In this document: one piece after another, positions 1 through 58,775 of the stretch
How the letters are laid out: each line of letters begins with the position of its first letter
How positions within the stretch are numbered: the stretch's first letter is position 1
Assembly: GCA_039621445.1 (NCBI GenBank)
Contig: CP154954.1
Coordinates: 38,487,703-38,551,702, forward strand
From: Euglena gracilis
Taxonomy: Eukaryota
DNA: 64,000 nucleotides
Reading direction: 5' to 3'
Notes under the pieces: model-generated
Told to the model about the DNA's origin: nothing
What the model saw: only the letters and a program-made list of their open reading frames with translations
The model's database searches: none
Made by a program: the position numbers and the translations under genes

Positions 1-140
1 TAAAGGGGGCTCCACAGCTCAGCTCAGTTGGGAGATGGCTGGAAAAAAAGTGCTGGCTTGCTGGCTGGACCATTCCCCCTGCCCCCTCTGGGGGTAGGGT
101 GGGGTCCGGCTTCAGAAATTCCCTGGCATACACCCATGGG

Positions 141-3100
141 TCAGCACACGGTGCAGTCGCCCTTCCGCCCGGGCTTCCCGTCAGAAGTCCGCCCGCCCTT
201 GGCCAGCGCCGCCTGCACCTCCTCCGCCACCGCCGGGGGAAGGTCCAGACCGCGGGCCAGCATGAGGGGGTCCCCCGGCTGCAGCTCCGGCGCCAGCGAG
301 GCCAGCGTCGCACTGCGGCGGACCGGTCGAGGCCATCCGGGTTCCGCTGGCGGTTACGGGGGGAGGGGGGCTGGACTGGCCCGGGGGGGGGGGGTGGTTG
401 GAGGTGAGAGGCAGAAGGAAGGTAGCCCAACCCTATGGGGGCTATGGGGGGGGGGGGCGACACACTTGCCCGGCAGCGGCACACAGAACTTCAGGTTGAA
501 CAGCCGGTACTGCTCCTCCTCTGGCACGCGGTTGTTCTCGTTCTTGAGTTTGGCTGCACAGAGCGGCGGCAACAATTATGTCCAAATGATTGCAAAAATG
601 CGCAAAGGAAGAAGCCTCATTCTATTTTCTCTGGGTAGCTTCCTCTTGAAATGAAACAACCCCCCCCAAATGACCTGGCAGGGCGCCCAACTCCTGGAAC
701 CATCATTTTGGCTTGCCCCTCGCCAAGTTATTTGCCAGGGGCAAGGACCCAACTAGTTTATTTGGGGGTTACAGGAGCGAAAACAGGTGTAACCGCACAT
801 TTGTGATCCTCCAACCCAAAGGTGTTGAGGGAATACAAAACATTTCCAGGTGGATGTGGGGGTCCAGAACCCCGTTGGTGTCCTGTGCATGACACTCTTT
901 CCTTGAATGCATTATACAACTCCCATTGAATGTGGTTTCAGTCGTTTGCCTTTTCATGCTGCCATGACCTCTGGAAACTCATTCCTCACTCCTGGAGGCA
1001 CACATACGTTGGCGAGAGATACACAGGTTGGGGCAAATGTGAAAAAATTGACAGATGGCAAACCAATGTGGCCACCATTGGCACCCAGGTGACCAATTGA
1101 CAACTTCGGTGACTCACCCACTGCCCTCTATCCCTCCAGGTTGTTACGTGAAAGATCAGCAGGTTCAGGATTGGCAATACCTTTCTGGGAGGCATGACTG
1201 CAAAAGATTCGTCACGGTGAAAAATGGCCATCGAAATCCGCGAAAACTGAGAATGCCCTCTCCCCCGAGCCCAGCGGCCCAAATCCCCACGTCGAGCAGG
1301 CCGAGGCACACCTTGGGCGCAGACCTGGTCCACCACTTTGCCCACCACCCACCGCCGGCTGAAGTACATGTGGCACGGGGCCAGGGCCGGGAGGGCCGGG
1401 CGAGGGAAGGCGGGACGGAGAGGGAGGGCGGGCAATCCCTAACGGCTCAAACACGCCCCCCCCCCCCCCTGTGGCCGGGCGGGGCGGGCCGCCGGGCCCT
1501 GGGAGGGGGCGCGGCGATCTCGGGGGCGAAGTAGACCGGGAACACGACGCGGTCCTGAGAGGACGATGGCGGAGGCACAGGGGGTGAGCCAGAATGGACC
1601 TCGGCATAAAAAGGCAAACAAAGCTCGAAAAACAACAACAAAGCAAACAAAGCAAATGGGGGGGGGGAGGGGGCAGCTCACAGTTTATGCCTTTTGGAGG
1701 TCCAGGCATGACACCCGGGTACAAACTGGTTCTATGGCATGCACCAATTACTTGTACAACGTCACACAAATATCATTTAGAGGGTCCCACATCACTCCAG
1801 TTTGAAACTCCGCAAATGCAAATTTATTTTTTGTAGCATTTAAATATTTAAATACAACAAAGAGACCAGATTTCTGGCCTGAATTTGGGCATGGCTGTTG
1901 AGCCTGTGAAAACCATTTTTTTGACCCCTGAAACATCAAAGTAAATGGCACTTCGAGGTTTTCTCCTTAAAATTGAGTTTAAAGGTGCCTTTACCCTCCA
2001 GTATTTAGCCAAAATGATTATTGGGGGGTAATAGCTGCCCAAAAATTTCGAAAATTTTCGAAGTCTCCCATGGTACCCAAAATAGCACCCAATAACCCCC
2101 CTTTGGGGTCATTTTTGCACTTTCTCATGAAATCGAGCATTTTTGAAGACCAGATGATCATAAAAGTCAACCTTTTTCTGTGATTTATTATCAGAGATGG
2201 TGATTTTTACCAACTTTTTCAGGTTTGGCCCGAAATTGGGGGGGGTATTCATTCGGTGACCGAAGTCGGACCCCGAGAGGGGGGGGGTATTATTTGGGGG
2301 AGGGTTTACAATAACATACTTTATCTGACCTTCTCAAACACACCACACAGAATTTCCACTTTGAACACAACACCCCTCACACTCGCCTCCTGTTTTCACT
2401 TTTCTCTTGTGGTCAAGCAAAATTAAAATGAGTTTTAGTCATTTGCGCAAATCAACCTTTTGAATCGCCAGTATATGTACACATTTGCGCACACCAACCA
2501 CCCAAATATACTGGCGATGCCCTTGGGGCTGGGTCCAGCACCATAAGAATATAAAAAAAAATTACAACAATTTCATCAGATTCAATTTCCAGCTCCAAAA
2601 ACGCTAACGTAGGGGGTCTTGGCTGGTTTTAAACATGGGTGTTGCGGGCAATGCACACATCGTCCATGTGTGCACTTGCGCACACCGACATTGTTTTTGC
2701 TGCTTTGTGGGTGTGACAGAGTCTTAAACATCAGTGGGTAGTGAAAAATAACTTGCCGCCGACTCAACAGGTGACAGGTGGCAATCCTGTGTTCTTTGTT
2801 CCCACCTCATCAACCAATAGCGGCAGAGTTCTCTAACAGCCCATTTCAACCTATTATTTTATATTTTTTTCATTTGTTGAATGTGAAAATCCACTCCATT
2901 TGTAACCAACTTCAAAAACCTCCACACCGCAGTTTAGGTTCAGAAAGCAAGCAAAGAGGTGGACCTGCCACCCCACCTCCAGAACGCCACCAGGAGGTAG
3001 TTGTCACACAAGAAGGGGGGGGGGTAAAAAGAGGAGTCTTTGTGTCCTTTTAATAAATTTCTCTCTTTGGGGGGGGTGAGTCCCGGTGATTTCGCACGTC

Positions 3101-6100
3101 GACGAGTTCGTTCAGCAGGCCAGACAGCATGTCGTGACAGTGTTCTGTTCTTTTTTGTTCGCAAGGCGTTGATCGTTGTCATTTCATGCATTTTTTTGAC
3201 CGTGAAAGATCACTCCCAGCCGAAATCTATGGAGGCAATGCAGAGACAGAAGTTGCGTGGGCAGAGTCCATTTCATTCCAGTGAGATTCTGTGGGGTAGT
3301 GGAAAACATCCACTTATGCGGCCAAACTCGCACTGGAGCTGTTTTGCGTCGGTGCGCACATTTGTGCACACCGATGCAATTTTTATCTTTGGAGGGTTGA
3401 TGTCCAGGTTTTTGAACTGCTTGTGACGTGCTGGAACTCCACTCGGAGGTTTTCACAATTTTCCAGCGGTGGCACCTGGGGGAATCTGAAAATCTTGGTC
3501 TTTTTGACACAATGAAAATAAACAAAATCATCCCCCAATTGAGAAAGCACCGACCTGAGAAGAGCACAATGCTCAATGGTTGATAAATGCGGAAAATACC
3601 GCAGAAAATGCATCATCACAAGAAGAAGGGCAGACAGCAGGGGGGGGGGGGACTGGAGGCACCTCGGAGGCCACGCTGGTGGGGCCGATGGCAGTCTGCG
3701 GGGTGTTGGCGAACCGCTGGGCCCCTAGCAGCAGGCACCAACGGTCATTTGTCATTTTGGGGCTCTGGTCGGCCTGGTCGGCCCTGGCCAGCAAATACTT
3801 GGCTGCAATCAGGGTGCATGCCAGTAAAAGAAAATAAAAAATAAGTCATAGAAATAAAAAAATAAAAATAAAATAAGTCATACCCCCCCCGGGCAATTGT
3901 CGCGTGACAAATTGGGCAGCACGGAGGGCGGTGACAATTTCCCGGGGTGACAATTTTGCCGGCACAGAGAGGGGTGACAATTACCCGGGGGCGTCAATTG
4001 CCCGGGGGCGTCAATTGCCCACCAATGTTAGCCACATTTGAACTAAATGACCAAGAACACCATCTAAATGACCAAGAACACCATCTGAAACACAAGTGAG
4101 TGCAGGAAAAATAATCTATGGTCGTGATATTGTGCAGAGCGTTTGGTATGCGAAAATTCTCAGCGCGTTGCAGCGAAATAGAAGATCAATTGAGTCATGC
4201 GGCGAAAAGAAAGTTCACAGAGCAATACTGCAAACGGGGGTGATAAATTGGGCAGCACGGAAGGGGGCGAAAATTTCCGGGGGGGGCAAATTGGCCGGCA
4301 CAACCAGGGGTGACAATTGCCCGGGGGCGTCAATTGCCCGGGGACGCCAATTGCCCGGGGGGGGGGGGGCACGGGTATGGAAAACAATATAATACAGTGA
4401 TAATAGTCATATACCACGACCACACAACACACTTCAATTTTTCTCAGGGTTATTTTGGGTCAGTGTGGCAATTTTCGTGCATTTTTGAGCACGTATTCTT
4501 GATGGAGTTGGCCATGTTTGGCCAATTTTAGCTGTTTTTGCTGGAGGTGAAGCATCCATAGACATTCATAGCACTTGCCGGCCCTCCGAGTTGCAGGTGT
4601 TATTTATTCTGATTATTACTGATATCATTGTTATCATTGCCATTACCATTGCTGTTATTTTATAATTCTCGTTGGATCGTTATCATTGTCATTACTACGC
4701 TATATATCCGTATTAATTTGTCACTTTTTCCAGTTGCCATTCTCCGGGTAGTCGGCAACGGTCGGGGCTGGTCAACTGTCGGTGCCTGCCCAGCAGGCCA
4801 ACTCGCCCCGCCGGCTCTACCGCCTCCTTCTTGGCCTGGGCCTGCAGCCTCCGGCAGGGCGGTCCGGGAAGACCCCTGAGGCGGGGAGGGGGAGGCAGCA
4901 GCAACCAGACCCCAACCGTGGGACGGGAGGGGGACCCCCGCCCACCCGCAGCGTTGCCGGGCGTCCCCGGCCCGCCCTGGCCGCCGGGCCCTCCGCTGCT
5001 GCTCCTCCCGCAGCCGGGGGCAGTCGTGGTCCTCCTGACAAGGGGAGGGGGGGGGAGGGGGGAACGCTCCTCCTGCGGAGCAGGTCAGCCCAGCACCCCC
5101 CAATCCGCGGACTGTGTCCCTACGCCCACTTCAACGGACAAGAGAGAGGGAGAGACAGGGAGTGGAGGGATGCCTCAGTCCAGACTTCACAAACCACGAC
5201 AGTGTGACGCGGGCGGTCTGCAGGCGGGTGATTGAGTGTCCGTCGGATGGCCAAAACGCCGACCCTGTCCGTCGTGGTACTGTTCTGTGCGGACAAAAGT
5301 CCTTTGGACTGGGAGTGAAAGCCAAAAATTGGTAACTGTGTAAAGGAAAATAAAAAAAAATGCCACCCGTGGAGAGGAAACCAAAATATTATTCTGCTCT
5401 GTAGAGCGCAGATTCCCCTTCTCAGACCGTCGCCCTTCAGGAATCCCAAACAGCATAGTACCCCCCCCCGCCTGTCCAACGACTGCTGAATATCGCTACT
5501 GACCGGGGGGGAGGGGTCGCTAATTTGTCCAAATATCGCTACTGACCGGGCGGGGGTGGTCGTTAGACAAGACCGGGGTCAACGTTTTCTTCTCCCGCTT
5601 CGCCCCAAGGGGGATGCTTCTGCACCGCATGCACCGCGTGTTTCGCATCGCGTGCGGCACCGCGCGCACCGTGCGGCACCGCATGAGCCGTGTGGCACCG
5701 CGCGACAAGAAGCAGGTACAACTAAAATGACTGAATGAGAGAAAAATGCATGCAAAAGCGCCCATCGATCACAAAATTGCAGTCACTGAATCTGTGCAAG
5801 TGACCACAAAATGGCCAAAGGGGCAAGAAGTGGATAAAAGCGATAGAAATGGCTAAAATGGCCACAAATATGCAAAAATAGCCAAAAGCAGCCGAAAATT
5901 GGTATAAATGAAGCAAAAAATGCATTCAAACAAAGTGGTCTGAATTGCCAAATGCAGCCCAAAATGGGCAAAAGTGGCCAAAAGTGGTCCAAACTGGCCA
6001 AAAAAAGGGGCCAAAAAAAGGCCAAAAGTTGCTGATTTGCAGGAAACTAGACAAAAAAAGTTGTGGGGGTGCAAAAACTTTGCAATTGTGTGGTCTATAC

Positions 6101-8497
6101 TCTGAGAGAACACAAACGTCTGGAAAAAATATCACCTGGAAAAATATCGCTACTGACCGGGGGGGGGGGGGGCGTTGGACAAGGGGGGCGAGGTACTGTG
6201 TACGAGGCTCAGAACTATATCTGGACGTATTAAAAATGGTTCTCACTTTTCATTTTTGACCCCGTTCGACCGCCAACTTGGCCGGCCCTTTGGCCAAGGG
6301 GGCGGTCCTTAAGAGACAGTCCTGAGTTTTAAAAAAAACTTGTCCTCCATGGACCTCCCTGTCTGGGGGGGGAGGTGTGGGAGAGGCAGCTGACCTGCAG
6401 GCGGTGTGGGACGCAGAAGGAGTTGCCGCATGCTTTGCAGCGGATGAGGACGTGCTCGTTGGCGGTGCAGTCCCGGAAGGCGCAGAAATTGAGGCGCTGG
6501 GGCTGCGGGGACGCGGTCTTCCCCTCCCGCGGGCAGCCCTAGGTGGGGGGGGGGGGGCACGCACGGTGGCGCTGCACATAAACTGGAAAAACAGTTTGGC
6601 GAGACGGGCACGCACTCACCATCACAATTGGGCTCACGGGGGTCCTGGGCCCCCCACCGTGGCTCTACTGGACAACCGCACACTGGCAAGCCGTCGTACC
6701 TTTTCCATGTGGACGGACACGGCGTGGTTTGGATCTTGGTTGTGAGCCGCAGGAAGGAGCGAATCAAATTCCATGTGAACTGACAATTCTGGCCAACATT
6801 CCTCCCCCATGACCCAGGGTCCTTGGGGGCACGAAGCACCAGAATTTCCTTTTGTTACACCCAAAACATGCCAGAGGTGTCCATTTTGGAACGTTGGGAA
6901 GGTATTTGGGATGAAAATACAAAAGAAATATGCACCATAACCTCGTCTCCACATTGGCGCAAAGCGACGGAAGACACTGTTTTTTTTCCTGTCGGGGGGG
7001 ACCAGACCCCCCCCATCTCCAGGGTGAAGTGGCCAGTGACTTTCCAGCTGGAGACTGCCAGCCAGTGGACCCTGGGATCCTTCAGCTTAGGCTTGCACAG
7101 CGATCCGGGCCCAATGGTCGTTTTGAAAGGACTGCCCCCAAAACAACAACAACAGGCTTGCCACCCGGGGAGGTCTGGCTCAGAGGATGAAAAATTTGGG
7201 CTGGCTGGAAAAAGGCTGCTGGTTGACCCCCCATGGCCACGCCCCATGCCCCAGGGCTGGAACAGGGCCTGACTGGGGGTTGAAACGGGTACCAAAAATC
7301 GAAACTGCAAAAATGTCAAAAAAATGGCAAATACAAAAAAACAACGATTTTTTGATCCAAAATTTGCCCTGGACAGCCCTTTTCTGACCCAATTTTCGCC
7401 CATTTTTGACCCGTTTTTGGCCGATTGTTGCACCCCCAAAAGTCAAAAATCTGTTGCCGTCCAGCAGCCCAAAGGTTGGTTGGAAATAAATAAAACTCGC
7501 TGATGGGTGGGGGGGGGAGGGAGGTGCAGGGCTGGAAAAAAGGCTGCTGGCTGAAAAAAGGCTGCTGGCGGGCTGGACCTCCCTGGGGTGCTGGGGTGGG
7601 GTCAAAGTCTCTTCTCGAGATGCGGCCTGTTTGCCGCGGGGTATGCATTTGCAAACAAACTGGGGGAGGAAAAAAGGCAATGCTCTTATGTGTAGTTGGG
7701 CATCTTCTCATTTGAGGGATGAAATGGAAATGACCCAGGGTTATAAATTGCCTGAAGGTCGATTTTTGTCAATCAATGGGATGTCAAAGGGGATGCCGTT
7801 ACCACCCGAATCAACAGGTTGTTCATGATAAACAAAACCCGTCCACCTCCCAAAGAGGAGAAAAAACTCATTTTTGAGTGTTTCTATTTTTTTGGAACTC
7901 CTCTTTGACAGCGAAAATGGGGGTGATAAGGCAGACAATACAGAGGGGGTTCTGGGGAGACACGCTGGCCGGCACATGGGGGGGGGGTTCATCAACATGT
8001 GTGTGGGAGGGGAGTTCGTTGTCAGCGGTGGTGCCACTGCTTTGGTGGCGAATGCATGGCGGATTATCTGAAAATGTGTGAGCTGCATCCATTCCAAACG
8101 GTTGCCAGTTGCACATACAGGGGGGGGGGCTTCCCATTCCAAGGTCTGCGAGTGGAGCCTTCGGCTGCCCCCCTCATTCGCACCGGACATGTTCGTGTGT
8201 GAGACCAAAGGTTGGCGATCTGCCCCTGGCCGTGGGGACCAACTGGCCGCACAGCGGGCACTCCGGCACCACCTTGTCGTAGTGGCCGCGGCAGTCGTGG
8301 CTGGCGAAGAGGCGATGGTCCTGCAGGCAACGGGACTGAAATGTGAGGCACATGGGGATGACACAAATGATGCACTTGACGGTTGCCCAAGCCGTGTGCA
8401 TCCCCTCTCCAAGAGGTGATCCCTTCGGCCACAGGGCTGGTGGAGTTAGGAGCACACATCGCACACATGTGCGCACGCACATGCGCATGCACGCTCG

Positions 8498-8535
<38 letters not shown>

Positions 8536-8754
8536 CACACACATATGCAAATATGTGCCCACACATGCACATCCGCATGCACAAGCACGCATGCACGCAC
8601 AAGGATGCACACACACACACACAGACACACACACACACACACACACACACACCTCACACAGGCTCTCCCCACACTTGTGACATGTGAAAGGAAGGTCCAC
8701 GAAAGTCCCGCAGCAGTGGCAGGGCTTCCCCTGCACCACGGATGCAAGTGACAT
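141..8754 (-). CDS. AN1-type zinc finger protein: two AN1 fingers (ZFAND2/AIRAP-like), ZFAND1-like ubiquitin-like domain, C-terminal CaaX; multi-exon
   Basis: Exons (minus): 8653-8754 MSLASVVQGKPCHCCGTFVDLPFTCHKCGESLCE; ~8227-8320 DHRLFASHDCRGHYDKVVPECPLCGQLVPT; 6700-~6742 NQDPNHAVSVHMEK; 6395-6538 GCPREGK..NFCAFRDCTANEHVLIRCKACGNSFCVPHRLQ; 4983-5034 EDHDCPRLREEQQRRAR; ~4820-4849 RLQAQAKKEA; 3663-~3724 RFANTPQTAIGPTSVASE; 1505-1554 DRVVFPVYFAPEIAAP; 1312-1376 PCHMYFSRRWVVGKVVDQVCAQ; 466-553 AKLKNENNRVPEEEQYRLFNLKFCVPLPG; 141-312 ATLASLAPELQPGDPLMLARG...KGDCTVC*. Most junctions are in-phase GT-AG; some are nonconventional. Family assignment by recalled motif similarity. Confidence 0.88.
1377..1504 (-). 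other. Nonconventional (non-GT-AG) intron
   Basis: 5' TCC-CAGGGCC pairs with 3' GGCCCTG-GCCCC; removal joins IAAP|PCHMYF in frame. Confidence 0.8.
3881..4377. mobile_element. MITE family A, copy 1
   Basis: TA-Cn-GGGCAATTG ... CAATTGCCC-Gn..TA ends; two ~115-bp direct arms of GTGACAATT / GGCGTCAATTGCCC motifs around a conserved core; homologous to 22970-23466 and 46728-47218. Confidence 0.85.
4850..4982 (-). other. Nonconventional intron with residual 8-nt direct repeat
   Basis: 5' GGC-CAGGGCGG / 3' CCGCCCTG-CCGGA; joins RRAR|RLQAQAKK; junction octamers CCGGCGGC vs CCGGAGGC (7/8). Confidence 0.7.
5459..6195. mobile_element. TA-flanked MITE family B
   Basis: TA-Cn..TGTCCAACG ... CGTTGGACAAG-Gn..TA; internal CTGACCGGGGGG..GGTCGTTAGACAAG motifs and low-complexity core. 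Confidence 0.75.
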
Positions 8755-16000: not shown

Positions 16001-18474
16001 GGGGGGGGGGGGGGCCACCCTGCAGACTTGCCAGAGGCTTTTTTTTTGAGACGCAGGGGAGTCAGCACCCCTGATCCCCTGGGGTTGGGGCCCAGCTGCT
16101 CAGCATAAGGTGCGGAGCTTTCTTCTTGGGGTTGGTGACTGAGGGAAGTCCGGCTGGGGGTGGGGGTTAGGCCGAGGGGGTACCCTGTGGAAGGGGGGGA
16201 GGTTCCTCCCCCCCCCTTCCACTTCTGCTTTTCGGCACAGAGCGCCAAAATTGTGGGGAACTGACTCCACCGGGGTCATTTTCAAAAAGGAGGTCCCGCC
16301 GCGCTGGCGGGCGGGCCGCGGGCGGCTTGCCGTCTGGGCCACATCGCTCGCTGCACTCCATCACCCAGGCCGACAGGAACCGGACCTGCCGGGGTGGGTG
16401 GGGCAGGGGGCGGGTGCAGCCTTCAGGGGGGCGGGGAGGCTGGGGAAGGGCGTTCCCTTGACGACCCCTCCATAAAAAAATGGATCTTTGCGGACTCCCT
16501 CCCACAGAGAAGCTGCCACCAAACAAGTCGCCAACTTCAACGCGAACAATTCTAGGTGGCAAATTCAACATGAAAAAAACGAGGTCCAGCGAACCCACTA
16601 TGCCATCAACGAAGCCACAAACAACTATGCACAGGTGTGAGGATGATTTATTAATCGACAAAAGGTTGCTCTGGTTGAAACACTATAAACAACACCACTG
16701 TCGAGTACCAACAACACTGTCGACAGCTTAACTTCAACTTTAAAATATAATCACTCATTCAACCCCAGGCGGATCAGCCACTTGGGGATCCATGTGAAAT
16801 TGACCAAAAATGAAGAAAATGGGCAAATTTTTAATATTTTCTTTAGTATTTATTCACACTGGATCTAATTATGATCTGTGGTGTGTGCGTACATTTTGTA
16901 CATGAACACATTATTGATTGTGTGAACGTGGCAGGCATTGACACACCTGTTTTTTTCGTTGGATGATTTGTTGCCCATTTGAGAAAGGAAAAGTCCTGCC
17001 ACCTTGAACGGCGCTACACGGGACATGGGGCCTGCCGTGCCCCGGCACCTTCTATCCTGTGGGTGTGCACCCCTCCCCAGCCTGCACCGGTTGAACTGCT
17101 CCCCGTACCACTGAGCCGTGGCTTGCATCCGGGCCGCCCCCAGGGCAGGGATGGCCGGAAAGAGCGGCACAGATGAAGCACGGTGCAACGCGGGGGGGGG
17201 GGGGGGGGGCAGAATAGACCCTCAAAATGTGACACAACAAATCAACCCCCCCCCAATCGTTTGGGGGATACAAGGAAAATGTCAAAAAAGACATGATTTT
17301 CACAATCTGGGGAACATGCTGATTCTAAAAATATGGAATTTGCTGAGCCAAAAAAAAAGACAAAAGATGACCAAACTTTGGTGGTCTCAGGGAAAAATTA
17401 GGTCCAAAATTTGGAGATTTGCTGAACTGAGATCATTTCCCAGGAGGCTTTGCAAAACGCGGGGGGGGGGGGCGACAAAAAACCGCAAAAAGCCAACAAA
17501 TTTTGCCAAAATAGAAAAAAAATTGAAAAAACGCGTTGTGTGCTGCCCTGCCCTGGCCTCCAGGAAATACTCATCGCGGGGCTCGCGGGCGTTCTTGCTC
17601 CACTTCACCACGAAGTCCTGCTCTGGGCCCGGGGGGCAGGGCCTGCCCGTCTCCGCTCAGCAACAAACGCAGCACAAAGGAAAAGGGTCCGCCACAAGGA
17701 TGCAATGGGCGTCGGGTAAACCGTGCAACGAAACAATTCCCCAGTCAAATAACCCGATGCTAAGAAGCAAAGTCCCTTCAACAACAGCGTTTGGTCGACC
17801 GACGGCGACTCCAAGGGGAGGGATATTATCTGGCGAGAATTGTTGCAATTTTGGGTCAAAATTTCAATCACGGAAATGTGTTGAACAACCCCAAAGTCCA
17901 TGTTGGGGGGATATTATTTGGGCGGCTGAACTTGGGCTCTGGAGGGAGTATTATTTTTGGGGGGGAATACAACTTGGGGGGGGGGGGCTTACAAAGCTGC
18001 TGATTAGAATTGCAGCCACTCCCCACCACACAGCAACCCCGGAACTTCAACCTCACCCGAGCATGTGGTGAGGTCCTGAGCAATGGCCGGTCCAGGTTCT
18101 TCATGTAGTAGACATGCCGCAGGGCTCCCTGGAGGAACAAGGTGCATGGATACAAGGTGCATGGCCATGTGGGGCCATTGGCACACAGCATTTGCACTCG
18201 GTTGCCAGACGCTGTCCACGCATGCACCCAGATGTCCACGCATGCATCGGCACTCCCACACATGCACACGCACACACACATATTTGGGGGGGTGTCCAAC
18301 ACACCTCCTGCCAGGGGTAGGGGTCCAGCCGCACACGGGCAGGGGTGCGCTGCCACGTGGCGGTGTCGAACTCGTAGCGGAAGAGCGTGACGGGCTCCCC
18401 GGCCGGCGGGGACGTCAACTGGCCGGAGGAGTGGGGCGGCAGGGTTGTGGTCAACAGGGCGGTTGGTCACTGGC

Positions 18475-36600: not shown

Positions 36601-39600
36601 GCAGATGGGGCGTTCCAAGGGCTTCAAATTAGGTCGCCGGACATTTCCTTTGATTTTGCTTCATTTTGAAGATATTTTGAAAATTGACATTTTTTGGCCG
36701 AAATGGCAGAGTCCAAAGGGGGGGGGGGGTTGGCCAATCCTACCCAGTTTGGACCCCTTCGCGCGTGAATAACTCGGGCCTGGCGGGGAGTTGGGGGTCA
36801 AACCCAGGTGATTCGGAAACTAGGAATCCAGTCGCTCGCGACTGAAAAAAAAAATTTCGGGAACGGGGCCGGGATCATGGTGATAATCCGCCGGTTCCCG
36901 AGGTGGCCCCGAGGGGGGGGGGAGGGGGGGGGAGGGGTTTTCCCCCAGTGGTAAGCTTCGCTCTTACCCATAAAGGGATAAGAGCTCAGCGCCCCCCCCC
37001 CATACCCCCCCCCCCCATACCCCCAAAATTTTTTTTGCCCGAAAAAATGTTTCCCCCGCACCCGGAAAACTTGTTTTGCGCCGAATTTGAGATTTTTTCG
37101 GTGTTTGGGTCCAAAACGGAGCAAAAAAAGACGAAAAAATGCGAAAAAATTTTTTGTCCGAAACCATGGTTTTTGGCCCCCCAGACCCGGAAAACCTGTT
37201 TTTGAGCCAAAAATGAGCATTTTTCGACCGCGCGATGTATGAAACTGTTCGAGTGCCCAGGGGGGGGGGGGCTCCCGCCCGCCCCCCCCCCCGGACCCCC
37301 CCCCGGCAACAAAAATAACCTCATCTTTGTCTACCGACTTTTTTTGTGGGCAAATCGCACGACGTATGAAACTGTTCCAGTGCCCGGGGGGGGGGGGGCT
37401 CCCGCCCCCCCCCCCCCCGGACCCCCCCGGCAACAAAAATAGCCTCATCTTTGTCTACCGACTTTTTTTGTGGGCAAATCGCGCGACGTATGAAACTGTT
37501 CGAGTGGGGGGGGGGGGCTCCCGCCCCCCCCCCCCCCCCCTGGACCCCCCGGCAAAAAAAATAAACCTCATGTTTGTCTCCGAAGTTATTTTGCGGACAA
37601 ATAGCGCGATATATGAAATTTTTCCAGTGGCCCGGGGGGTGAGGGATTGCAGGATCTCCCTTTTTCAGCCAACCACATCAACAATATCCCCAAACACTAT
37701 CCCACCATACCCCCCCCCTACCCCCCAAACCCATACCCCCCACACCCCATACCACCCCCATACCCCCCATACCCCCCCCATACCTCCCCATACCACCCCC
37801 ATACCACCCCCATACCCCAGGTATGGGGGCCCCACTTTGTGCCATATGTGTTTTTATTACAAATAATCATTATTGGTCGTCAAAAAAAAGTTGAAACGGT
37901 GTTTTTTAGTGGTTTACGGTAGATTACTATACTGGCATCATAGCCAATGTTTTACAACAAATAAGTGTTATTTTTTTATTATTTAAAAATAGGTTGTGGT
38001 GAGACATGGGGGCGGGGGCCATTGTTGGCCAACTCAGATTTGCCCCGTGGCACCCAATCTTTTTTCCCCCCCATGCTGGTTTGGTTCAGCAGTTGGGTTA
38101 GTGCCGGACAGCCCAAGAGGAAGCCGGGGAGAAGAAGAAGTCGTCCTGCCTGCAGATGACCGCAGCTCTTTGATAACCATCCTGCGGGGAAACTATGGAA
38201 TACGCCCAACCATGCCTAGCAGGTCTTGGCACAAATTTGAAAAATAGACGAAAAATCCTAATGTTTTGGCAGCGTCGCTGCCATCCCTTGCATTGCTTCC
38301 ATTCCCCCCCGGATGGCGAAACGACACAGGGTTTGCGTTGCATAACTTGGACCCCATGATATTCCCTTCGACAACCAAAGCACGTTGGGTAGTTTTTTGC
38401 GCGGGAGGGCTAAGAACAACAAGAATAGGGTCAGGGTTAGGATTCGGGTTATGGTCCGTCATGGTGTTTTCCCCGAAGCACCCAATTGTCAGAACGTTGC
38501 ACCGTCGAGAAACCGCGCCCTGCCCGTGCCCTGGGCCATGGAGGGGGCAGGGTAGGGGGCAGCGGGCGCCCCGGCCCCGGCGGCCCCCAGCCGGCCGGAG
38601 GCAGGCTCGGAGCGGTGGGGGGACGCCAGCGCGGCGGGGTAGTACTCCCCGAGGAACAGGGACGGCGGGGTGGGGCTGTCGGGGGAGGCGTAAATCTCAG
38701 AGTAGCCACCCCCAGCCTGGAGCAGCCCCCGCCACTCGTCGCCTGGCAGGGCTCTGCGTGCCGCGCCGGTGGGGGAAAGCCCAACCCTGTGCTGTGGGGG
38801 GGGGGGCACCCACAATGCGGCCGTTTGCCTGCGATTGGCACAGGCAGAGCCCTGGGCAGGGGGAGGCGGTTGAGGATTGGCCGGGCTCGTGATCCGCCCC
38901 TTGCTCAACAGCGTCCATTGCTGTGTGGGCCGGGTGGGGTATGCGCATGTATCACTTGTGTCAATGTGCCACGGCAGGTGTCACTTGCAAGCGCCTGTGA
39001 GTGTGTGTGCAGCTGTGTGTGGGTCATGACAGGCCGGGGCTTCCGGGGGTTCGGGTCCCGGCCGAGCCCCGCCGCAGGGAGCGGTTGCGGTCCGGCGTCC
39101 GGCGGCGATTCTGCTCCGCGGCCAGCTGCTGGATGGAGCTCCAGCTGGTCCCCGGCAGCGCCGCCTCCCTTTAAGCCACCCCCCCCCCCCAGGGCTGCAT
39201 GGGACGTCCTGGTGCAAGAGGTCAACTCTGGCACTCGGGAGGTGGGGGGCAGGCACCTATGGTCACTTCCCATTTTGGTGCTCTGGTCGGCCCTGGTCGG
39301 CCCTGGTCGGCCCTGGTCGGCAAATAGTCGGCCATAGGTGGGGGTATCCGCCACAGAAAAAATGTGAAGGGATGCAATGATTTTCTGAATTGTCTCGCCA
39401 AGATCAAAAGGAAGTGCCCCATAAGGCCTCCATTGGCAAGCACCTTCGGTCACCCACCCGCATCGCCCTGCATCGCCCTGCATCGCCCTGCATCACCCTG
39501 CATCGCCTTGCATCGCCCTGCATCACCCTAGAGCCATCCAATAATACCCTATAACCGAAGACCAAAATTCAGGCACACAAATACAGCAGGGGCACTGGAA

Positions 39601-42600
39601 GGGTACTGCAAACACGACCACCTCACCCTCCAGCACCCGCAGCTCCTCCAGTTGGTCCCACCGCTGCCTCTCCAGCCAGCAGCAACCACTGCCAGTCGTG
39701 CTTCTCCCGACCACGCAGCTTCCTCCACTGAAGGAGAGGACGCTAGTCAGCAAAGGCCTTTGGGGGTCACACTTCCCGGGGGTCCCGCTTCTTGGCCTCC
39801 AACCAACCTTCCTCGACATCCAACTCGCGACTTTGTGTATTAAATTCGCGGCTCGTTGGATGCCAATCCTTCCAAAGGCGCAGTATGCGCACCCTACACA
39901 TGCGCACATGTGCATTCTCGGATTCACATGCCCTACAAGCATCCACGGATGCACATGCTCATGCACATGCCTACAACCGCAACTACAGTCGCCCGTTTAT
40001 CCCACAACTTAAGATTCCCCCCATAACCTCCCTCTCCCACCAAAGCATCCACTCCAAGGAGTCACTCAGGGAAGACCAGACGAGCCATCGTCGACTCAGG
40101 TACGAAGCAAGCACCAATGTGGAGTCTGTAGGCAGGTATGCAGCAGGGGCACGATACCTTCGGCTCCAGGGGAGTCACACACCTCCCGGAGGGGGACAGA
40201 GAGGTCCAGCACAGCAGCAGAGGCAGAGGCATGGGCAGACATGAAGGGCATGCTGGAGTGGTCTGCGGGGGAGGGAGGGTGTACCCAGCAGTATAGGCCC
40301 AAATATGGACCCTACTTCAGCCATCCAAAAAAAAGCATCGCCCAGCATCGGAACCCCACCTCTGTCTCCAAAAATCCAGCATCACCCAGCATCGCCCAGC
40401 ATCGCCCTGCATCGCCCAGCATCATCAGAGGTGCTTGTTCCAGAGGGAAAGCTGCCGAATTCCTTCATCCATTCCCCTTCGGTCGGCCAACCACATGCAA
40501 CTCGGCCCTGGTCGGCCCTGGTCGGCCCTGGTCGGCCCTGGTCGGCCCTGGTCGGCCCTGGTCGGCCCTGGTCGGCCCTGGTCGGCCCTGGTCGGAACTG
40601 GTCGGCCCTGGTCGGCCGTAGGTGCCTGGTGGGGGGGCCGGATCCGTCCCACCCACCCGGGGTGGGCCCCCCGCCACCCATCGGGTTTCCACAATTCCCG
40701 TCCGGTGGGCTTGCGACGGGGACCGGCGCTGGCCTTCAGTTCCCCCCCTCGAGGGGGGCCGGCCCCCGCGGTCCCGGCGGTGGGCCGCGGGCCGGCGGCG
40801 GCGGCGGTGGTGGGGCGGCGGGGGTCGGCCCCGGGTGGCGGGGCCCGGGGGGCGGCGGGGCTGCCGGGCAGGGACGAGCCGCTGTGGGACCGCGGGAAGC
40901 CGGGGAGGGGGTCCCGGGCGGGGCAGGGCAGTCAGGAGGGGGGGGGGGGCACCGGTGTGCGATGGGGTCCCTCTGGGGGGTGCTTCCTGCCTGGGGTCGA
41001 ATGCTAGAGTTGGCCACTGGGACGTCACTTAGTGACCCCCCCTTGGGGGGGGTCAGCTCAGAAGCTGGAAATTCGGGCTGAGTGGAAGAAGGCTGCTGGC
41101 TGACCACCCCCCCCTCCCGGGGTGGGGACCCATGCTGAAGCTGGCCGAAAACTGGGTCCAACCAGATCGACCACAACTGAAAGTTCCACCACAAATTGAA
41201 AAGGCAGAAAAGCCCAAATTAGCCAGTTATGCAACCTATTGATTTTGAGACCCAAAACTTCAGTTAGGCAGACCAACAAGTCAAGCAGACCAAATGTGGC
41301 CCAGTTTGGCACCTTCCGCGCGGAAGGGGAAGCATGAAAGCTTGTCGATGGGGGGAAAAGGGGGGGTCCAGGGCTGGAAAGAAGCTGTCTGTGAAAAGAC
41401 TGCTGGCTGGCTGGACCCCAGGGGTGGGGTTTCCTTCAGCTTAAGCGACTCCATGCTGTCCACACACGTTGGCACTGCGGCACATTGAGGATGGGGGAGC
41501 GCAGTCCTGTGCCGGACAGCTGCGGGCTGGCCGTGGATGGGGAAGTCTGCCAGGGCGTCAGGGACGGACGCGGAGGGCGGGGCGGGGCTCAGCCGGGCCT
41601 TCAGCAGCGCCGGGGAGCGCCGCCGTCGCCCCCGTGCGCCAGCCGGCGCCCCGGCGGCGTAAGTCATGCTTGGGGACAGCCTGGGTGGGTCGAGCCCCCA
41701 CCGACGATGGTGCTGTGCGAGAGAAAAATACTTTTGTCACTAAAAAGAAAACTGAAGACAAACCTGTGGGCCTGGAAAACCGGGGAGAGGGAGGGGCAGC
41801 ACCACAGGGTTGCCGGGGGGGGGGGGGGGGGGAGGGGGGGGGGGCCCAGCGGGGGGGCGGGGGGGGCGCGGCCGGGGCTCTTGGTCGGGGTGGTGGGCTG
41901 CGCCTTGGGGGACGTGAGACCCCTGGCGGGCCCCAGGCCCCCGGCGCCAGGCCGCCAGGGGAGGGCCGTGGCGCCGGGCTTGCCGGGGGGCGCCGGCACG
42001 GGGCCAGGGCGGAGCCGGAAAGCCGGGCAGGGGTGGGGGGCCAAATTCTGCATAACAAGCCCACAGTATCCATGGATATGTGCGCCATTCAACCCCCCCA
42101 ACCCCCCCCCCCCGGTGTTTGCCCAGCTGACCTGTTCCCGGGGGCTGGTTGCACTTGTTGGCACCCCCCATTTTTGGCATTGAGGCAATCTGGCTGTGAA
42201 AATCACGCCCCCCCCCCCCGATTTATACCGTTATTTGGGCACCCAAACTGGGGGTCCAGGGGGGGTATTTGGGCACTGCTGCCTGAACAGGTTCTTCCCG
42301 AACAATGTCCGATATCAGCGTGGAGGATACCTTGTCCAGGAGTGCATCCCTGGCATCTGGAAAGCGCCGCCAAAATGCGGTCAGCCCATTTTTGAAAAAT
42401 GAGCAATTTGGAGCACGAAGCAATGAACCCAAAGAACAAATTGTCTAAGGTCCTCCGTCAATCGGTTCTGACCTTCAAATATATACATATATATGTATAT
42501 ATGTATATATATAAAACCATGTCTGCGTGAGCACTCCTGGACAAGAAATACATCTGCTTATGAACGTTGTGCACGGGGGGTGGGGGTCTCGGTGTCTTAT

Positions 42601-43282: not shown

Positions 43283-45310
43283 CTCTCTCTCTAGTTCTCT
43301 CACTCTCGCTTTCGCTCCCAGGCTGCGCATATGTGTGGGGCCAGTGCTGGTCCTCACCTTGTCCGGGGTGGCGGTTCGGCCCATCGGACTGCCGGGGGCG
43401 GGCGGCCGCAACTGGGCCGGGGCCGCGTTGGGGCGGGGGGAGTTGTGGTCGGATGGCGTCCGGCCGCGGGAGGGGCCCGCCGTGGCCTTCGGCACATGGC
43501 CTCGGGCTGGCCGCAGAGCACCGACCATCAACGGAACCGCCAGGCGGGGACACAGGCGGGAAGGGGGAGGGGCGGGAGGCAACGCTCTGGGGGGTCCGGC
43601 GGGGCTGCCCATGCCGTGGGGGGCGGCGTACTGGCGGCCGGTGAGGGGGTGGCGGGACTGGCACACCGCGGACCCGAGCTGGTGGAAGACGAAGAACGCC
43701 CCCTCCACGCCGTAGACCCAGCCGGGGGGCAGGTCGGGGAATGGCGGCGTGGCGCTGCGGCGGCGTCGGGCTGTTTGAGTGAACGGGAAGAAAGATGATA
43801 CGGGAGGATGGGAAACTTCATGGTGAATGGGGGAGAATACGCAGAGAAGTATAAATAGAAAGGCGAGTGTACGGAAATATGAGGAAAGCAGTATGTTCAT
43901 ATGTGGCTGAATGCGTAGTTTCGCATGTTTGTGCACAAATTGCCTTCATCCGTTCCCATCGCAAAGATGTGGTTTGGGGAAACATCAGAAACAGGACTTA
44001 CAATTGAAAAAAAGAAGCATTTCAAGAAAAAGATACGACAAGGGACAGAAAAAATAGATCTGTTTCAACCCAAGGTTGTGGGCAAATCCAAACTGTTCAC
44101 AAGTTTCAAACGCTTGAGTCTGTCCCATCACCTTTGCAAACACCGTCAAAACCTCACAGCACCCACGGAACAGGGTCGTTGCAAAACCCCTCCCCTCTGC
44201 ATGGCTTCCGCAGCCCCACGGAGGCCGTCGCCGGGCGGGGGGCGGCCGGGCCCGAGGCGACGAGGGCGGCCCGGCCCACCCCCGGCTTGCTGGGCGAGTG
44301 GTACTCCTGGCGCGTGGTGGGGTGGGGACAGGGGCGGGGGGGGGGGGGGGGGGGGGGAAGGGATGTGTGGGAAGCCCTGGGGAGGGGGTCTGGACCCCCC
44401 CCAACCCGAAAGGGGCTGGGAAAATTTTTGGTTCTATGAAAAATGGTTCCGGAAACCAGGCCAGTTTTTTGAAGAATTCCTGATTTTTCTTTGAAAAAAA
44501 AATCCAATAATGTTCTTTGTGATTTTTTAATTTTTGAACATCTTTTTTTGTGTGGAAAACACCAAACCATCAAAAAAAAAAGTGCAATGTGTTTAAAAGT
44601 GAGCGAAAAGAGAAAATTTTCTTGCATTTTCTGGCGCTGAGGGAACCAGCCAAGGAGGGGGGGTGGGGGGTCTGGTTCCCCCTCCCAACATCCAGTGGGA
44701 GGGGAGCGGGTCCGGACCCCCCCCCAACCACCTCACCCCCCAGGGTCCGGACCCCCCCCCCCTACCACCCACCTCAAAACCGAAGGGCTTCCCATCTATG
44801 CCTGGGGGAGTCCAGCCCCTCCCAACATCTAGGGGGTGGGAGAGTTGTACCTACCTCCCTCAATGCCAACGGGCTTCCCATACATCCCTGTGGGGGGGGC
44901 TATGGCACGCAAAATGCCAACAACAGAATGAGGAGAGGTTTGCCATCGAAATGCGCCAGGAGAGCGATGCAGGCGCTCCTTACAGACCAACAGAAGCTAA
45001 CTTGGTCGAATGGTTCACTCCCAAATCTCGGCCAAAAATCTGGAACAAAGAAGCCACTCCATCTACTTGAGGAAAGTTGAAAGCGATTGAGAGCAGTCAC
45101 AAGAAGGGAATGAATCATTTCTTTCGGGTGTGTGTTTGTGCGCACGTGCACGTGCGCGTCGCGCAGTGTGCACGCTGTCTCGGTGAGCGCCCTCCCTGGG
45201 TGGCTGAAGGTGGTGGTGGACGACGCCTCGTCCAGGAAGATGTACCGGCCGCTCGTCAGGAGGCGGCACTCCCAGCCCGGCGGCAGCGGCGGGAACGGGT
45301 CTGCCGACAT
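10051..45310 (-). CDS. Probable single large gene: two WW-like domains + long Pro/Ala-rich linker + alpha-kinase domain + Pro-rich tail
   Basis: ATG 45310 ([38 protein letters not shown]); GC-rich exon islands at ~44220-44323, 43350-43760, 42900-43080, 41870-42030, 41480-41660, 40700-40930, 39030-39240, 38537-38890, 34326-34478, 28050-28290, 27280-27530, 26270-26500, 25600-25910, 24860-25000, 23590-23820, 21690-21870, 20800-20940, 20180-20550, 19290-19500, kinase exons 13490-18470, then ~12270-12400, 11660-11860, 10735-10925, 10445-10610, 10051-10200 (..GPMPYYAP*). Continuity across 28.3-38.5 kb is inferred from intron-end pairing; linker frames not fully resolved. Confidence 0.55.
13490..18470 (-). 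CDS. Alpha-kinase (eEF2K/MHCK-type) catalytic domain exons
   Basis: 18305-~18470 [29 protein letters not shown]; ~18080-18128 [15 protein letters not shown]; 17559-~17650 [22 protein letters not shown]; ~17088-17135 [16 protein letters not shown]; 16324-~16400 [25 protein letters not shown]; 15635-15727 [31 protein letters not shown]; 14231-14315 [28 protein letters not shown]; ~13490-13635 [42 protein letters not shown]. Hallmark alpha-kinase motifs (GAxR, QAFSHF, DIQG, TDPQI, HxCNxxC) in order. Confidence 0.95.
14316..15634 (-). other. Nonconventional intron (contains a MITE)
   Basis: 5' AGC-CAGCTCG / 3' CGGGCTG-GGGCC; joins [13 protein letters not shown] in frame. Confidence 0.85.
14860..15431. 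mobile_element. MITE family B, degenerate copy
   Basis: CTAATGTTCGTCTCCG, TTTTGGCC-rich core and GGTGGTCGTTGGACAAG right end as in 33289-33891. Confidence 0.6.
15728..16323 (-). other. Nonconventional intron with non-CAG stem
   Basis: 5' GCC-CGCGGCCCGCCCG / 3' TGGGCGGGCTGCG-GCCGT, same +4/-6 register; joins [12 protein letters not shown]. Confidence 0.75.
17136..17558 (-). other. Nonconventional intron
   Basis: 5' GGC-CAGGGCAGGG / 3' CCCTGCCCTG-GGGGC, perfect 10-bp stem; joins EYFLE|ARMQ in frame. Confidence 0.9.
18477..18960. repeat. (GT)n-type compound microsatellite; similar tracts at 8500-8652, 43088-43280, 46232-46310, 63795-64000
   Basis: Direct inspection. Confidence 0.95.
22970..23466. 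mobile_element. MITE family A, copy 2
   Basis: Same arms and core (aaatgaccaa..caccatctgaaacac..gtgatattgtgcagagc..aaagaaagttcaca) as copy 1. Confidence 0.85.
25101..25512. mobile_element. TA-flanked MITE family B variant
   Basis: TA-Cn-TATGTCCAATGACC ... GGTCGTTGGACATA-Gn-TA. Confidence 0.8.
30066..34028. mobile_element. ~4-kb TIR DNA element with dispersed internal palindromes, no recognisable transposase
   Basis: Perfect 27-bp TIR CCTTAGACGGCCGGGAATGCACTTTTC (30066-30092 / 34002-34028); AAC on both flanks; 13 copies of AATGCGCAnnTGCGCATT-like motif; nested MITE at 33289-33891. Confidence 0.85.
33289..33891. mobile_element. MITE family B nested in the 4-kb element
   Basis: TA-CCTCn-TTGTCCAACGACC ... 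GGTCGTTGGACAA-Gn-ATG-TA; a short sister copy at ~34107-34286. Confidence 0.8.
34827..35129. repeat. GC minisatellite (CCCGGCGG)n variants
   Basis: Direct inspection. Confidence 0.95.
35129..35722. repeat. ~162-bp tandem repeat, ~3.6 copies (resumes at ~36166)
   Basis: GAAAAACGCTC-type unit starts at 35129, 35291, 35451, 35616. Confidence 0.9.
35722..36165. repeat. 19-bp palindromic minisatellite CATCATGGGTCATGATGG(C/G), >20 copies
   Basis: Direct inspection; one inverted unit near 36020. Confidence 0.95.
40502..40616. repeat. 10-bp minisatellite (TCGGCCCTGG)n
   Basis: ~11 copies; shorter runs at 39282-39320, 3763-3790, 27629-27648. Confidence 0.95.
43630..45310 (-). CDS. Two divergent WW-like domains (N-terminal exons)
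   Basis: [40 protein letters not shown] (45202-45310 + 44323 down) and [39 protein letters not shown] (43630-43750): LPPGW, aromatic central strand, terminal HP. Confidence 0.75.
44324..45201 (-). other. Nonconventional intron
   Basis: 5' ACC-CAGGG / 3' CCCTG-TCCCC; joins [11 protein letters not shown] in frame. Confidence 0.8.
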
Positions 45311-46727: not shown

Positions 46728-47218
46728 TACCCGCCCCCCCCCCCCCCGGCAATTGTCGCGCGACAAATCGGGCAGCACGGAGGGGGGTGACAATTTCCCA
46801 GGGTGACAATTTGGCCGGCACAGAGGGGGGTGACAATTGCCCGGGGGCGTCAATTGCCCGGGGGCGTCAATTGCCTACCCATGTAGACCACATTTAATCC
46901 AAATGACCAAGAACACCATCTGAAACACCAGTGAACATGCAAAAATGCAGCTATGGTTGTGATATTGTGCAGAGCATTTGGTATGTGACATTTCTCAGCA
47001 CGTTGTAGCGAAATAGAAGATCAATTGAGTCGTGCCGGCGAAAAGAAAGTTCACAAACGTCTTCTGTGGGGGGTGACAAATTGGGCAGCACGGAGGGGGG
47101 TGACAATTTCCCGGGGTGACAAATTGGCCGGCACAGCCAGGGGTGACAATTGCCCGGGGGCGTCAATTGCCCAGGGGCGTCAATTACCCGGGGGCGTCAA
47201 TTGCCCGGGGGGGGGGGG
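46728..47218. mobile_element. MITE family A, copy 3
   Basis: Same structure as copies 1-2; right end abuts hAT-like MITE sequence. Confidence 0.85.
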
Positions 47219-47337
47219 ACCCAGCCGGGACCCACCCCCGGGTCGGTCCGGCCCCAAACCCACCCACTGGGGGGGGGGGGTCTGAGTTTAAAAGAAGCGG
47301 CCCGCCGGACCCTCCCCCCAGGAGAAAACCCCCGGTC

Positions 47338-47602
47338 CAGGCTTCTTTTTAAGACCCCCGGGGGGGGGGGAGGGGGGGTCACCCCCACCCACCCAGGGTG
47401 GCGCGGCACCCCCCCGGGGGGGGGGACCCCCCACAAAATCGGGCCCGCTAAAGGCAATTTTCAAAAAATTTCGGCTCTTCGCGCCGAAAAGGTATACCCA
47501 GCGCCTTCGGCGCGGGACCCCCCCCCGGGGGGGGGGGGGGTCCGGCCGGGACCCACCCACCCACCCCCCGGTGGGGGGGCTTCTGGCTTAAAAAGAAGCC
47601 TG
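47338..47602. mobile_element. hAT-like MITE
   Basis: 16-bp TIR CAGGCTTCTTTTTAAG / CTTAAAAAGAAGCCTG; perfect 8-bp TSD CCCCGGTC. Confidence 0.9.
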
Positions 47603-48385
47603 CCCCGGTCGGGAGGACTTGGGAATGGGTGCAAATGATGATTGCAATCCTACCCTCACCCTCCTGGGAAACTGTGATACCAGAGAACCTGTCAGGGTCG
47701 CACCTGGGAAACTGTCAGGCCCCCGCACCGGCCCCCGGTTTAAACCTCACCTCTCCCCCCACTTCTCCCACCAACCCCCCCCCCACCTACAAACCCCCCC
47801 TTGGGCCAACAAACCAAAGGACGACTGACTAACCCCCCCCCCCCCCGGTGAAGAAAAATGAAAAAGACGCCGGGGACGATTTATTTGGTTGCAAGACACC
47901 AACTGATTTTTGTCAATTTTTGTGTTCCCAAGAATCATCATGAAAAATGCCATTTTCGAATTCTGCCAAAAAAAAATGCATTGCAGAGGGGTGTTTTGGG
48001 CATTTTGGGGGGTCGGATTTGACCAACTAACCCCCCCAACTACTAACCACCCACCCCCGCTTCGGCCCAAGCAAACCAGATCGTACTGACCCCAGGGGGT
48101 TAGTCAGTGGGGGGTTAATGATACGATAAGGACTTGTCAGGGGGTGGGGAAAAAAGATGCTAGCTGGACCCCCCGGTGGGGGGTTGGATGCAGGCGTGAA
48201 TGTTAAGAGACACAAAAGTTGCGGAATGAGAAATGCCCCAGCACCAGTGGACACAGACAGCAACGCAGTGGCAGGAAAGAACAGCGATGGTGGAGTGCGG
48301 GTGCCACCCATATGTGTGTGGGGTACGGGGGTGCCACAGGCACACACCCGCCGCCCCTCACCGAGGTGTGTATTGTGCCGGGCTG

Positions 48386-58775
<10,390 letters not shown>

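Follow-up and report, generated by a model that had tools for sequence, protein, structure and literature searches.

A target-site-duplication-like octamer repeat at the junctions of a nonconventional intron in Euglena gracilis

Introduction

In Euglena, the majority of introns is taken out by a second splicing system, and release as a circular RNA is among the features of this intron class. The present analysis deals with one of these nonconventional (non-GT-AG) introns, which is 133 nucleotides (nt) long and located on the minus strand at 4850..4982 of a 64,000-nt stretch of E. gracilis DNA (assembly GCA_039621445.1, contig CP154954.1, positions 38,487,703 to 38,551,702 of the forward strand). 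This whole stretch is called the window, and coordinates are counted from its first letter. Two nearly identical octamers flank the intron, and they are probably what is left of the target-site duplication (TSD) of a transposon.

The nonconventional splicing code has been defined genetically as 5'-N3CDG.../...CH'GN5-6^R, in which ^ marks a junction and the purine at the first exon base is part of the code (PMC12501133). The exon bases on the donor side can be changed, and fully artificial introns of 50 base pairs (bp) with arbitrary spacers are still spliced (PMC12501133). The repeat of an octamer is therefore dispensable for splicing. Short flanking direct repeats are common, nonetheless. They make 84.4% of the introns of E. 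agilis, a species with 649,158 annotated introns, 'slidable', and in E. gracilis 72,771 of 413,446 introns are listed as non-slidable (PMC12501133). In an earlier study, most nonconventional junctions carry direct repeats, and an origin from MITEs (miniature inverted-repeat transposable elements) is proposed (PMC3935182). A review names 'TSD-like sequences' at such junctions (PMC11282704). A work on gapC reports a purine at the intron start and at the exon start and a C at exon position +3 as consensus features. In the same work, an intron gained recently carries a direct repeat of 8 nt, which exceeds the repeats at older introns in length and which the authors read as a trace of double-strand-break repair (PMC4770533). 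In the 2025 paper on the code, where nonconventional introns come from is still called unclear (PMC12501133).

The intron and its flanking octamers

A first-pass annotation of the window, made from its letters, had reported a 7/8 repeat at the borders of the predicted intron 4850-4982, and the pair lies exactly there. The 5' copy, CCGGCGGC (4980..4987, minus strand), consists of five exon and three intron bases and directly adjoins the CAG. The 3' copy, CCGGAGGC (4847..4854, minus strand), consists of five intron and three exon bases and directly adjoins the CTG. Both octamers occupy positions -5 to +3 of their respective junctions, and seven or eight of their eight bases are G or C. Read in the direction of the gene (4987..4980 against 4854..4847), they are identical in 7/8 positions, the sole mismatch being the fifth base.

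The removal of the intron is documented by transcripts. For window positions 1-8480, two contig runs of RNA-like character and a raw RNA-seq run were mapped, together with a run of DNA contigs. The joint 4846->4980, which removes 133 nt from the RNA, is carried by one contig in each of the two RNA-like runs and by 14 raw RNA-seq reads, all of which start at different positions. The joint is absent from the DNA run, in which an 867-nt contig is collinear across 4357..5222. The borders are ambiguous by three letters, and four placements from 4847-4979 to 4850-4982 yield the same mRNA. None of the four has GT-AG or GC-AG ends on the minus strand, and only 4850-4982 combines CAG at +4 to +6 and CTG at -8 to -6 with a tail of 5 nt and an exon that starts with a purine. 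The placement of the first-pass annotation is thus one of the four compatible with the RNA and the one that fits the code. On the minus strand, the sequence reads ...GCCCGGC^GGC CAGGGCGG ... CCGCCCTG CCGGA^GGC TGCAG... The segment 4850..4982 is a nonconventional intron in euglenid nuclear DNA.

Placed by the splicing code, the intron (GC content 0.79) reads GGC-CAG...CTG-CCGGA followed by the exon base G, and its ends pair in the stretches that follow the CAG and precede the CTG. The 5' arm of this terminal inverted repeat, CAGGGCGGGCCGGGGA (4964..4979, minus strand), is complementary in 14/16 positions to the 3' arm, TTCCCGGACCGCCCTG (4855..4870, minus strand). The first eight pairs of the helix are perfect, and it is present in both the minimum-free-energy and the centroid folds.

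Chance, GC content and register

The simplest objection is that the intron is real and that the 7/8 match is a meaningless likeness between two GC-rich octamers. The composition of the octamers lends itself to such a reading, and several junctions had been inspected in the first pass. To quantify chance, all N3-CAG...CTG-N5^R pairs lying 30-3000 nt apart on both strands of the window were taken as decoys (n = 67,275). At least 7/8 identity was reached by 55 of the 65,854 decoys with a helix of only 3-5 bp (rate 0.00084), and by 17/1,264 when both octamers had at least 7/8 GC. In the target's own GC class, 6/425 decoys reached 7/8. An all-against-all comparison of the octamers around the two target junctions (10,609 pairs) gave a rate of 0.0017 for at least 7/8. 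For the target alone, p is about 0.002-0.015.

The aggregate over introns and candidates is decisive and shows a repeat beyond GC-driven chance. Of 120 candidates whose helix was at least 8 bp long, five had octamers with at least 7/8 identity, compared to an expectation of 0.19 derived from GC-class-matched decoys. Since one of the five is palindromic and was counted on both strands, they represent four loci. The match is also bound to its register: shifting the comparison in the same 120 candidates reduced the count from 5 in register to 3 at ±1, 1 at -2 and 0 at +2, and it was 0 at ±4, -8, -12 and -16. The octamers of six introns were then compared junction to junction, three of them being the RNA-confirmed code-type introns of the gene that harbors the 133-nt intron (referred to as the AN1 gene; see below) and three being among those predicted by the first-pass annotation. 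Identity amounted to 35/48 inside -5..+3 and to 28/120 in 20 flanking positions (Fisher p 4e-9). With the three RNA-confirmed introns alone, the values were 18/24 and 13/60 (p 9e-6). GC content fails to explain the repeat because the flanks share the same GC-rich context. Moreover, the same gene contains a second 7/8 pair, described in the next section, in a GC class where only 6/5,665 decoys reach 7/8. Chance likeness is therefore considered unlikely, and the excess over a GC-matched background, which the first-pass annotation had named as a check of its claim, is present.

A code-only intron prediction across the window was tried as well and set aside. It returned 1,421 candidates with a helix of at least 6, most of them false, and the positional profile was too noisy when used alone.

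The neighboring intron and its repeat family

The next nonconventional intron downstream in the same gene (3727..4791, minus strand) is 1065 nt long and RNA-confirmed. Its octamers, CTGCTGGG (4796..4789) and CTGCTAGG (3731..3724), are likewise identical in 7/8 positions and were absent from the list of the first-pass annotation. The intron shares its ends, CAGGCACC.../...GGTGCCTG, with a repeat family, and roughly 100 nt of its terminal sequence can be aligned to 39250-39375 and 27589-27700 (126 columns, 61 invariant, 78% mean column identity). The family element at 39242..40636 has a body (39250-40628) located between two copies of GTGGGGGG that match in 8/8 positions. Several related copies with different flanks were thus found for this intron. 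Judged by its sequence, the intron 4791..3727 can be assigned to a transposon-like family in which 8-bp duplications occur. For the copy at 27.6 kilobases (kb), no right end was found; the sole GTGCCTG within 5.4 kb has unrelated flanks. Subterminal CTGGTCGGCC repeats are present in the family members at 39242-40636 and 27589-27700.

Two joints of equal length were observed for this intron: 3726->4792 in six raw reads and a contig of run X15, and 3723->4789 in 12 raw reads and a contig of run X16. The resulting mRNAs differ only by A versus G at the mismatch position of the octamer, and both codons encode Leu. The two joints could stem either from an allele in which the flanking repeat is perfect (8/8) or from both cuts sliding by 1 nt (N2/N6). 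Such a slide is unexpected under the published code (PMC12501133). A very high-copy repeat is nested in the intron at 3680-4528, with a word depth of 21,750-30,113 in the DNA run, compared to about 9 in its flanks. Copies of this repeat with about 84% identity lie at 22977-23437 and 46739-47194.

Further elements of this kind are present in the window. An intact MITE-like element at 47330..47610 has a 265-bp body (47338-47602), perfect 16-nt inverted ends CAGGCTTCTTTTTAAG and two flanking copies of CCCCGGTC (8/8). This element satisfies the nonconventional splicing code in both orientations. An older relative at 53124..53608 (body 53132-53600) is flanked by ACTGAGGG and ACTGGGGG, which match in 7/8 positions. 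In the elements at 39, 47.3 and 53 kb and in the neighboring intron, the duplication adjoins CAG...CTG every time.

Other junctions and intron age

Three other octamer pairs had been listed in the first-pass annotation, and all of them were recovered where it had placed them: 58733..58726 / 58144..58137 with 7/8, 45206..45199 / 44328..44321 with 5/8 and 17563..17556 / 17140..17133 with 5/8. The corresponding junctions at 58.7/58.1, 45.2/44.3 and 17.6/17.1 kb are predicted from the code and from the frames open across them. A protein search with 57553-57996 (minus strand, against longer proteins), intended to anchor the 58-kb junction, gave no match at E<=1e-5. In GC-rich octamers, 5/8 is unremarkable when taken alone, as 264/1,264 decoys reach at least this value.

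The spread of identities had been read in the first pass as a putative age gradient of TSD decay. The identity of the inverted repeat was considered as a proxy for age and dismissed, since selection for splicing acts on the helix, which cannot serve as a clock. A comparison is offered by the gapC gene of E. agilis ACOI 323. Its intron 4, the only strain-specific intron, reads GTCCC^aac...gtccc^AAC, i.e., 8/8 at -5..+3 (PMC4770533, Table S3). Nine intron positions common to all six strains contribute 54 entries classed as non-conventional or intermediate, and in these 1 to 6 of 8 bases match, with a mean of about 2.9 (PMC4770533, Tables S1-S3); the matches were counted by eye, and entries from different strains at the same position are not independent. 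The table agrees with the remark of the authors that the repeat is longer in a young intron, and with the direction of the proposed age gradient, an agreement that rests on one young intron.

Origin of the octamers

The octamers of the 133-nt intron sit where an 8-bp duplication would, are confined to -5..+3 and adjoin CAG...CTG, and the neighboring intron belongs to a family with 8-bp duplications. As a property of the class, the TSD-like reading is well supported. Of the features expected from a MITE, the 133-nt intron has terminal inverted repeats (14/16) and, at its termini, a duplication of fixed length, imperfect at 7/8; the length of 8 nt is supported by the register control. For the target itself, this part of the first-pass claim is supported by analogy, and its octamers are probably the decayed duplication of an old transposon insertion. 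Since the window holds no other copy of the target intron, its own transposon origin is what we infer from these features. The intron would have begun as a CAG...CTG element, and the single mismatch would represent decay.

Several observations weigh against this interpretation. Taken alone, the 7/8 match of the target is suggestive and not decisive, because at least seven junctions had been inspected in the first pass. The decoys were drawn without the purine preference at intron +1, and chance is somewhat underestimated by them. The fold energy of the whole intron is no better than that of shuffled sequences (z +0.72). A BLAST search of the 64-kb window with the intron returned one match, the intron itself, and the intron lies on a single DNA contig with an ordinary depth of 9.5, versus 8.8 and 10.5 in the adjacent bins. 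The multiple copies typical of MITEs were thus seen neither in the window nor in the depth of the DNA run. No transposase was found in the window, with Pfam matches in 0/139 long open reading frames (ORFs); these are the 150 longest of 232 with at least 120 amino acids, except for 11 that fall within the simple repeats of 18.1-19.3 and 50.4-51.6 kb. Finally, the fourth non-GT-AG intron of the same gene (6746..8228, minus strand, 1483 nt, confirmed by 32 raw reads) breaks the geometry of the code. Its spacers sum to 4, and only the 4-nt CGGC, adjoining CAG...CTG, is repeated.

Two further explanations have to be considered. The repeat could have arisen when a double-strand break with a stagger of 8 nt was filled in and repaired with filler DNA, in which case no transposon was involved. 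The authors of the gapC study favor this reading for the young intron (PMC4770533), and a 133-nt intron lacking another copy in 64 kb would suit it. Nevertheless, a constant length of eight bases next to inverted CAG...CTG ends recurs in at least two multi-copy families with different flanks. A transposase gives such a pattern and random breaks would not, and break repair appears improbable here. Instead of history, the similarity could also reflect what the splicing system or the coding sequence prefers, such as purines at both intron +1 and exon +1 or favored GGC triplets. Indeed, the exon-start purine belongs to the code (PMC12501133), and purines at both starts and the C at exon +3 are on record in the gapC study (PMC4770533). 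However, such preferences affect two or three positions and not seven. The freely changeable exon bases on the donor side and the splicing of artificial introns with arbitrary spacers (PMC12501133) also argue against this explanation, as does the average of about 2.9/8 in the 54 old E. agilis introns, counted by hand from the table (PMC4770533). It is regarded as very unlikely.

If the octamers are a decayed duplication, the following sequence of events may be proposed. A small DNA transposon with CAG...CTG termini would insert and duplicate 8 bp. In the RNA, the inverted CAG/CTG ends would pair and bring the junctions together. The nonconventional splicing system would then cut on the outer side of both, at a distance of 3 nt from the CAG and of 5 nt from the CTG. 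As 3 + 5 = 8, this cut would remove the element plus exactly one duplication's worth, i.e., eight bases, so that one copy would stay in the mRNA and the frame from before the insertion would be restored. On balance, we lean slightly towards a more general form of this proposal, in which the spacers of the code (3 nt and 5 nt) would not be arbitrary. Their sum would equal the 8-bp duplication of the CAG...CTG transposons that seeded the introns, the machinery would excise 'element plus one duplication' on RNA, and most of the roughly 80% slidable junctions would be scars in varied states of decay. A literature search, which covered the available text of PMC11170887 and PMC12621601 among others and excluded figures and bioRxiv supplements, found no statement equating the 3+5 spacers with an 8-bp duplication. 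Within the same limits, no named Euglena transposon family acting as nonconventional introns was found.

With loci of this kind, the published idea of a MITE-like origin becomes countable. Should the proposal hold genome-wide, direct repeats that annotators now discard as ambiguity would provide a clock for the gain of introns, and the 3+5 geometry of the cuts would, in addition, be a clue to what the splicing machinery evolved to remove.

The host gene

According to the RNA mapping, the introns described above interrupt one minus-strand gene, which runs from 8322 to 131 and comprises ten exon pieces, five GT-AG introns and four non-GT-AG introns. The reading frame is open across all nine joints. 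Six-frame ORFs were uninformative in this GC-rich DNA. From its translation, the gene product looks like a ZFAND1-like protein with two AN1 fingers. The exon at 6394..6537 (minus strand) gives a zf-AN1 match (E 3.5e-7, 30.7 bits versus a cut-off of 27.9). The following exon (4983..5033, minus strand), delimited by the joints 5033->6394 and 4846->4980, completes the second AN1 zinc finger. The 133-nt intron interrupts the linker just past this finger, and the exon downstream of it (4792..4849, minus strand) lies between the joints 4846->4980 and 3726->4792. A third code-type nonconventional intron (1377..1504, minus strand, 128 nt) is flanked by the octamers CCCCCTCC and GCCCCGTG, which match in 4/8 positions.

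Upstream of 8322, the transcript extends to a further exon, located near 8660-8700 and coding for the first AN1-like finger; the extension is seen as a loose end in 31 raw reads, and the exon had no Pfam match. The intron in between contains a (CA)n tract (8502-8660). In the exons within 240-8296, the raw RNA reads show many two-state differences, for instance C>T at 6524 (23/41) and A>G at 483 (40/60), which suggests that the sequenced strain has at least two alleles or gene copies. A minor joint, 1429-3630, skips 2200 nt and was confined to one contig (depth 11.2) of the RNA-like run X15; alternative or aberrant splicing may account for it.

Comparison with known systems

Non-autonomous elements of the hAT type leave 8-bp duplications and have ends that start with CAG or TAG. 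The elements in the window likewise combine 8-bp duplications (8/8 at 39 kb and 47 kb) with CAGG... termini. A hAT transposase with its dimerisation domain, expected of an autonomous copy, was not seen among the 139 ORFs searched in the 64 kb, and the elements are at most candidates for this superfamily.

Introns derived from MITEs or introners, in Micromonas and other organisms, are similar in several respects. They have inverted ends and a target-site duplication at the junctions, and their removal from RNA makes the insertion harmless (PMC11282704). The same review describes introners as being removed by the spliceosome, with the duplication forming part of the splice site, whereas removal at the present locus follows a separate CAG/CTG code.

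Intron 4 of gapC resembles the 133-nt intron in having an 8-nt direct repeat in the identical -5..+3 register. The gapC intron occurs in one strain only. Its repeat is perfect, in contrast to 7/8 in the 133-nt intron, its core has the ends CAT...ATG, and its authors favor double-strand-break repair (PMC4770533).

The closest relatives are the slidable introns of euglenids, with which the 133-nt intron shares non-GT-AG ends, the N3-CAG...CTG-N5^purine arrangement, a helix pairing the ends and a direct repeat that blurs the border, by 3 nt in this case (PMC12501133, PMC3935182). Nothing essential differs. These papers treat the repeats as a nuisance and do not measure the 8-nt register. Direct repeats at junctions, a young intron with a repeat of 8 nt and the hypothesis of a MITE origin have already been published, and the locus is a further example. 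What it adds to them is an RNA-confirmed intron with a near-intact 8-base repeat and, in the same gene, an RNA-confirmed intron from a repeat family with 8-base duplications.

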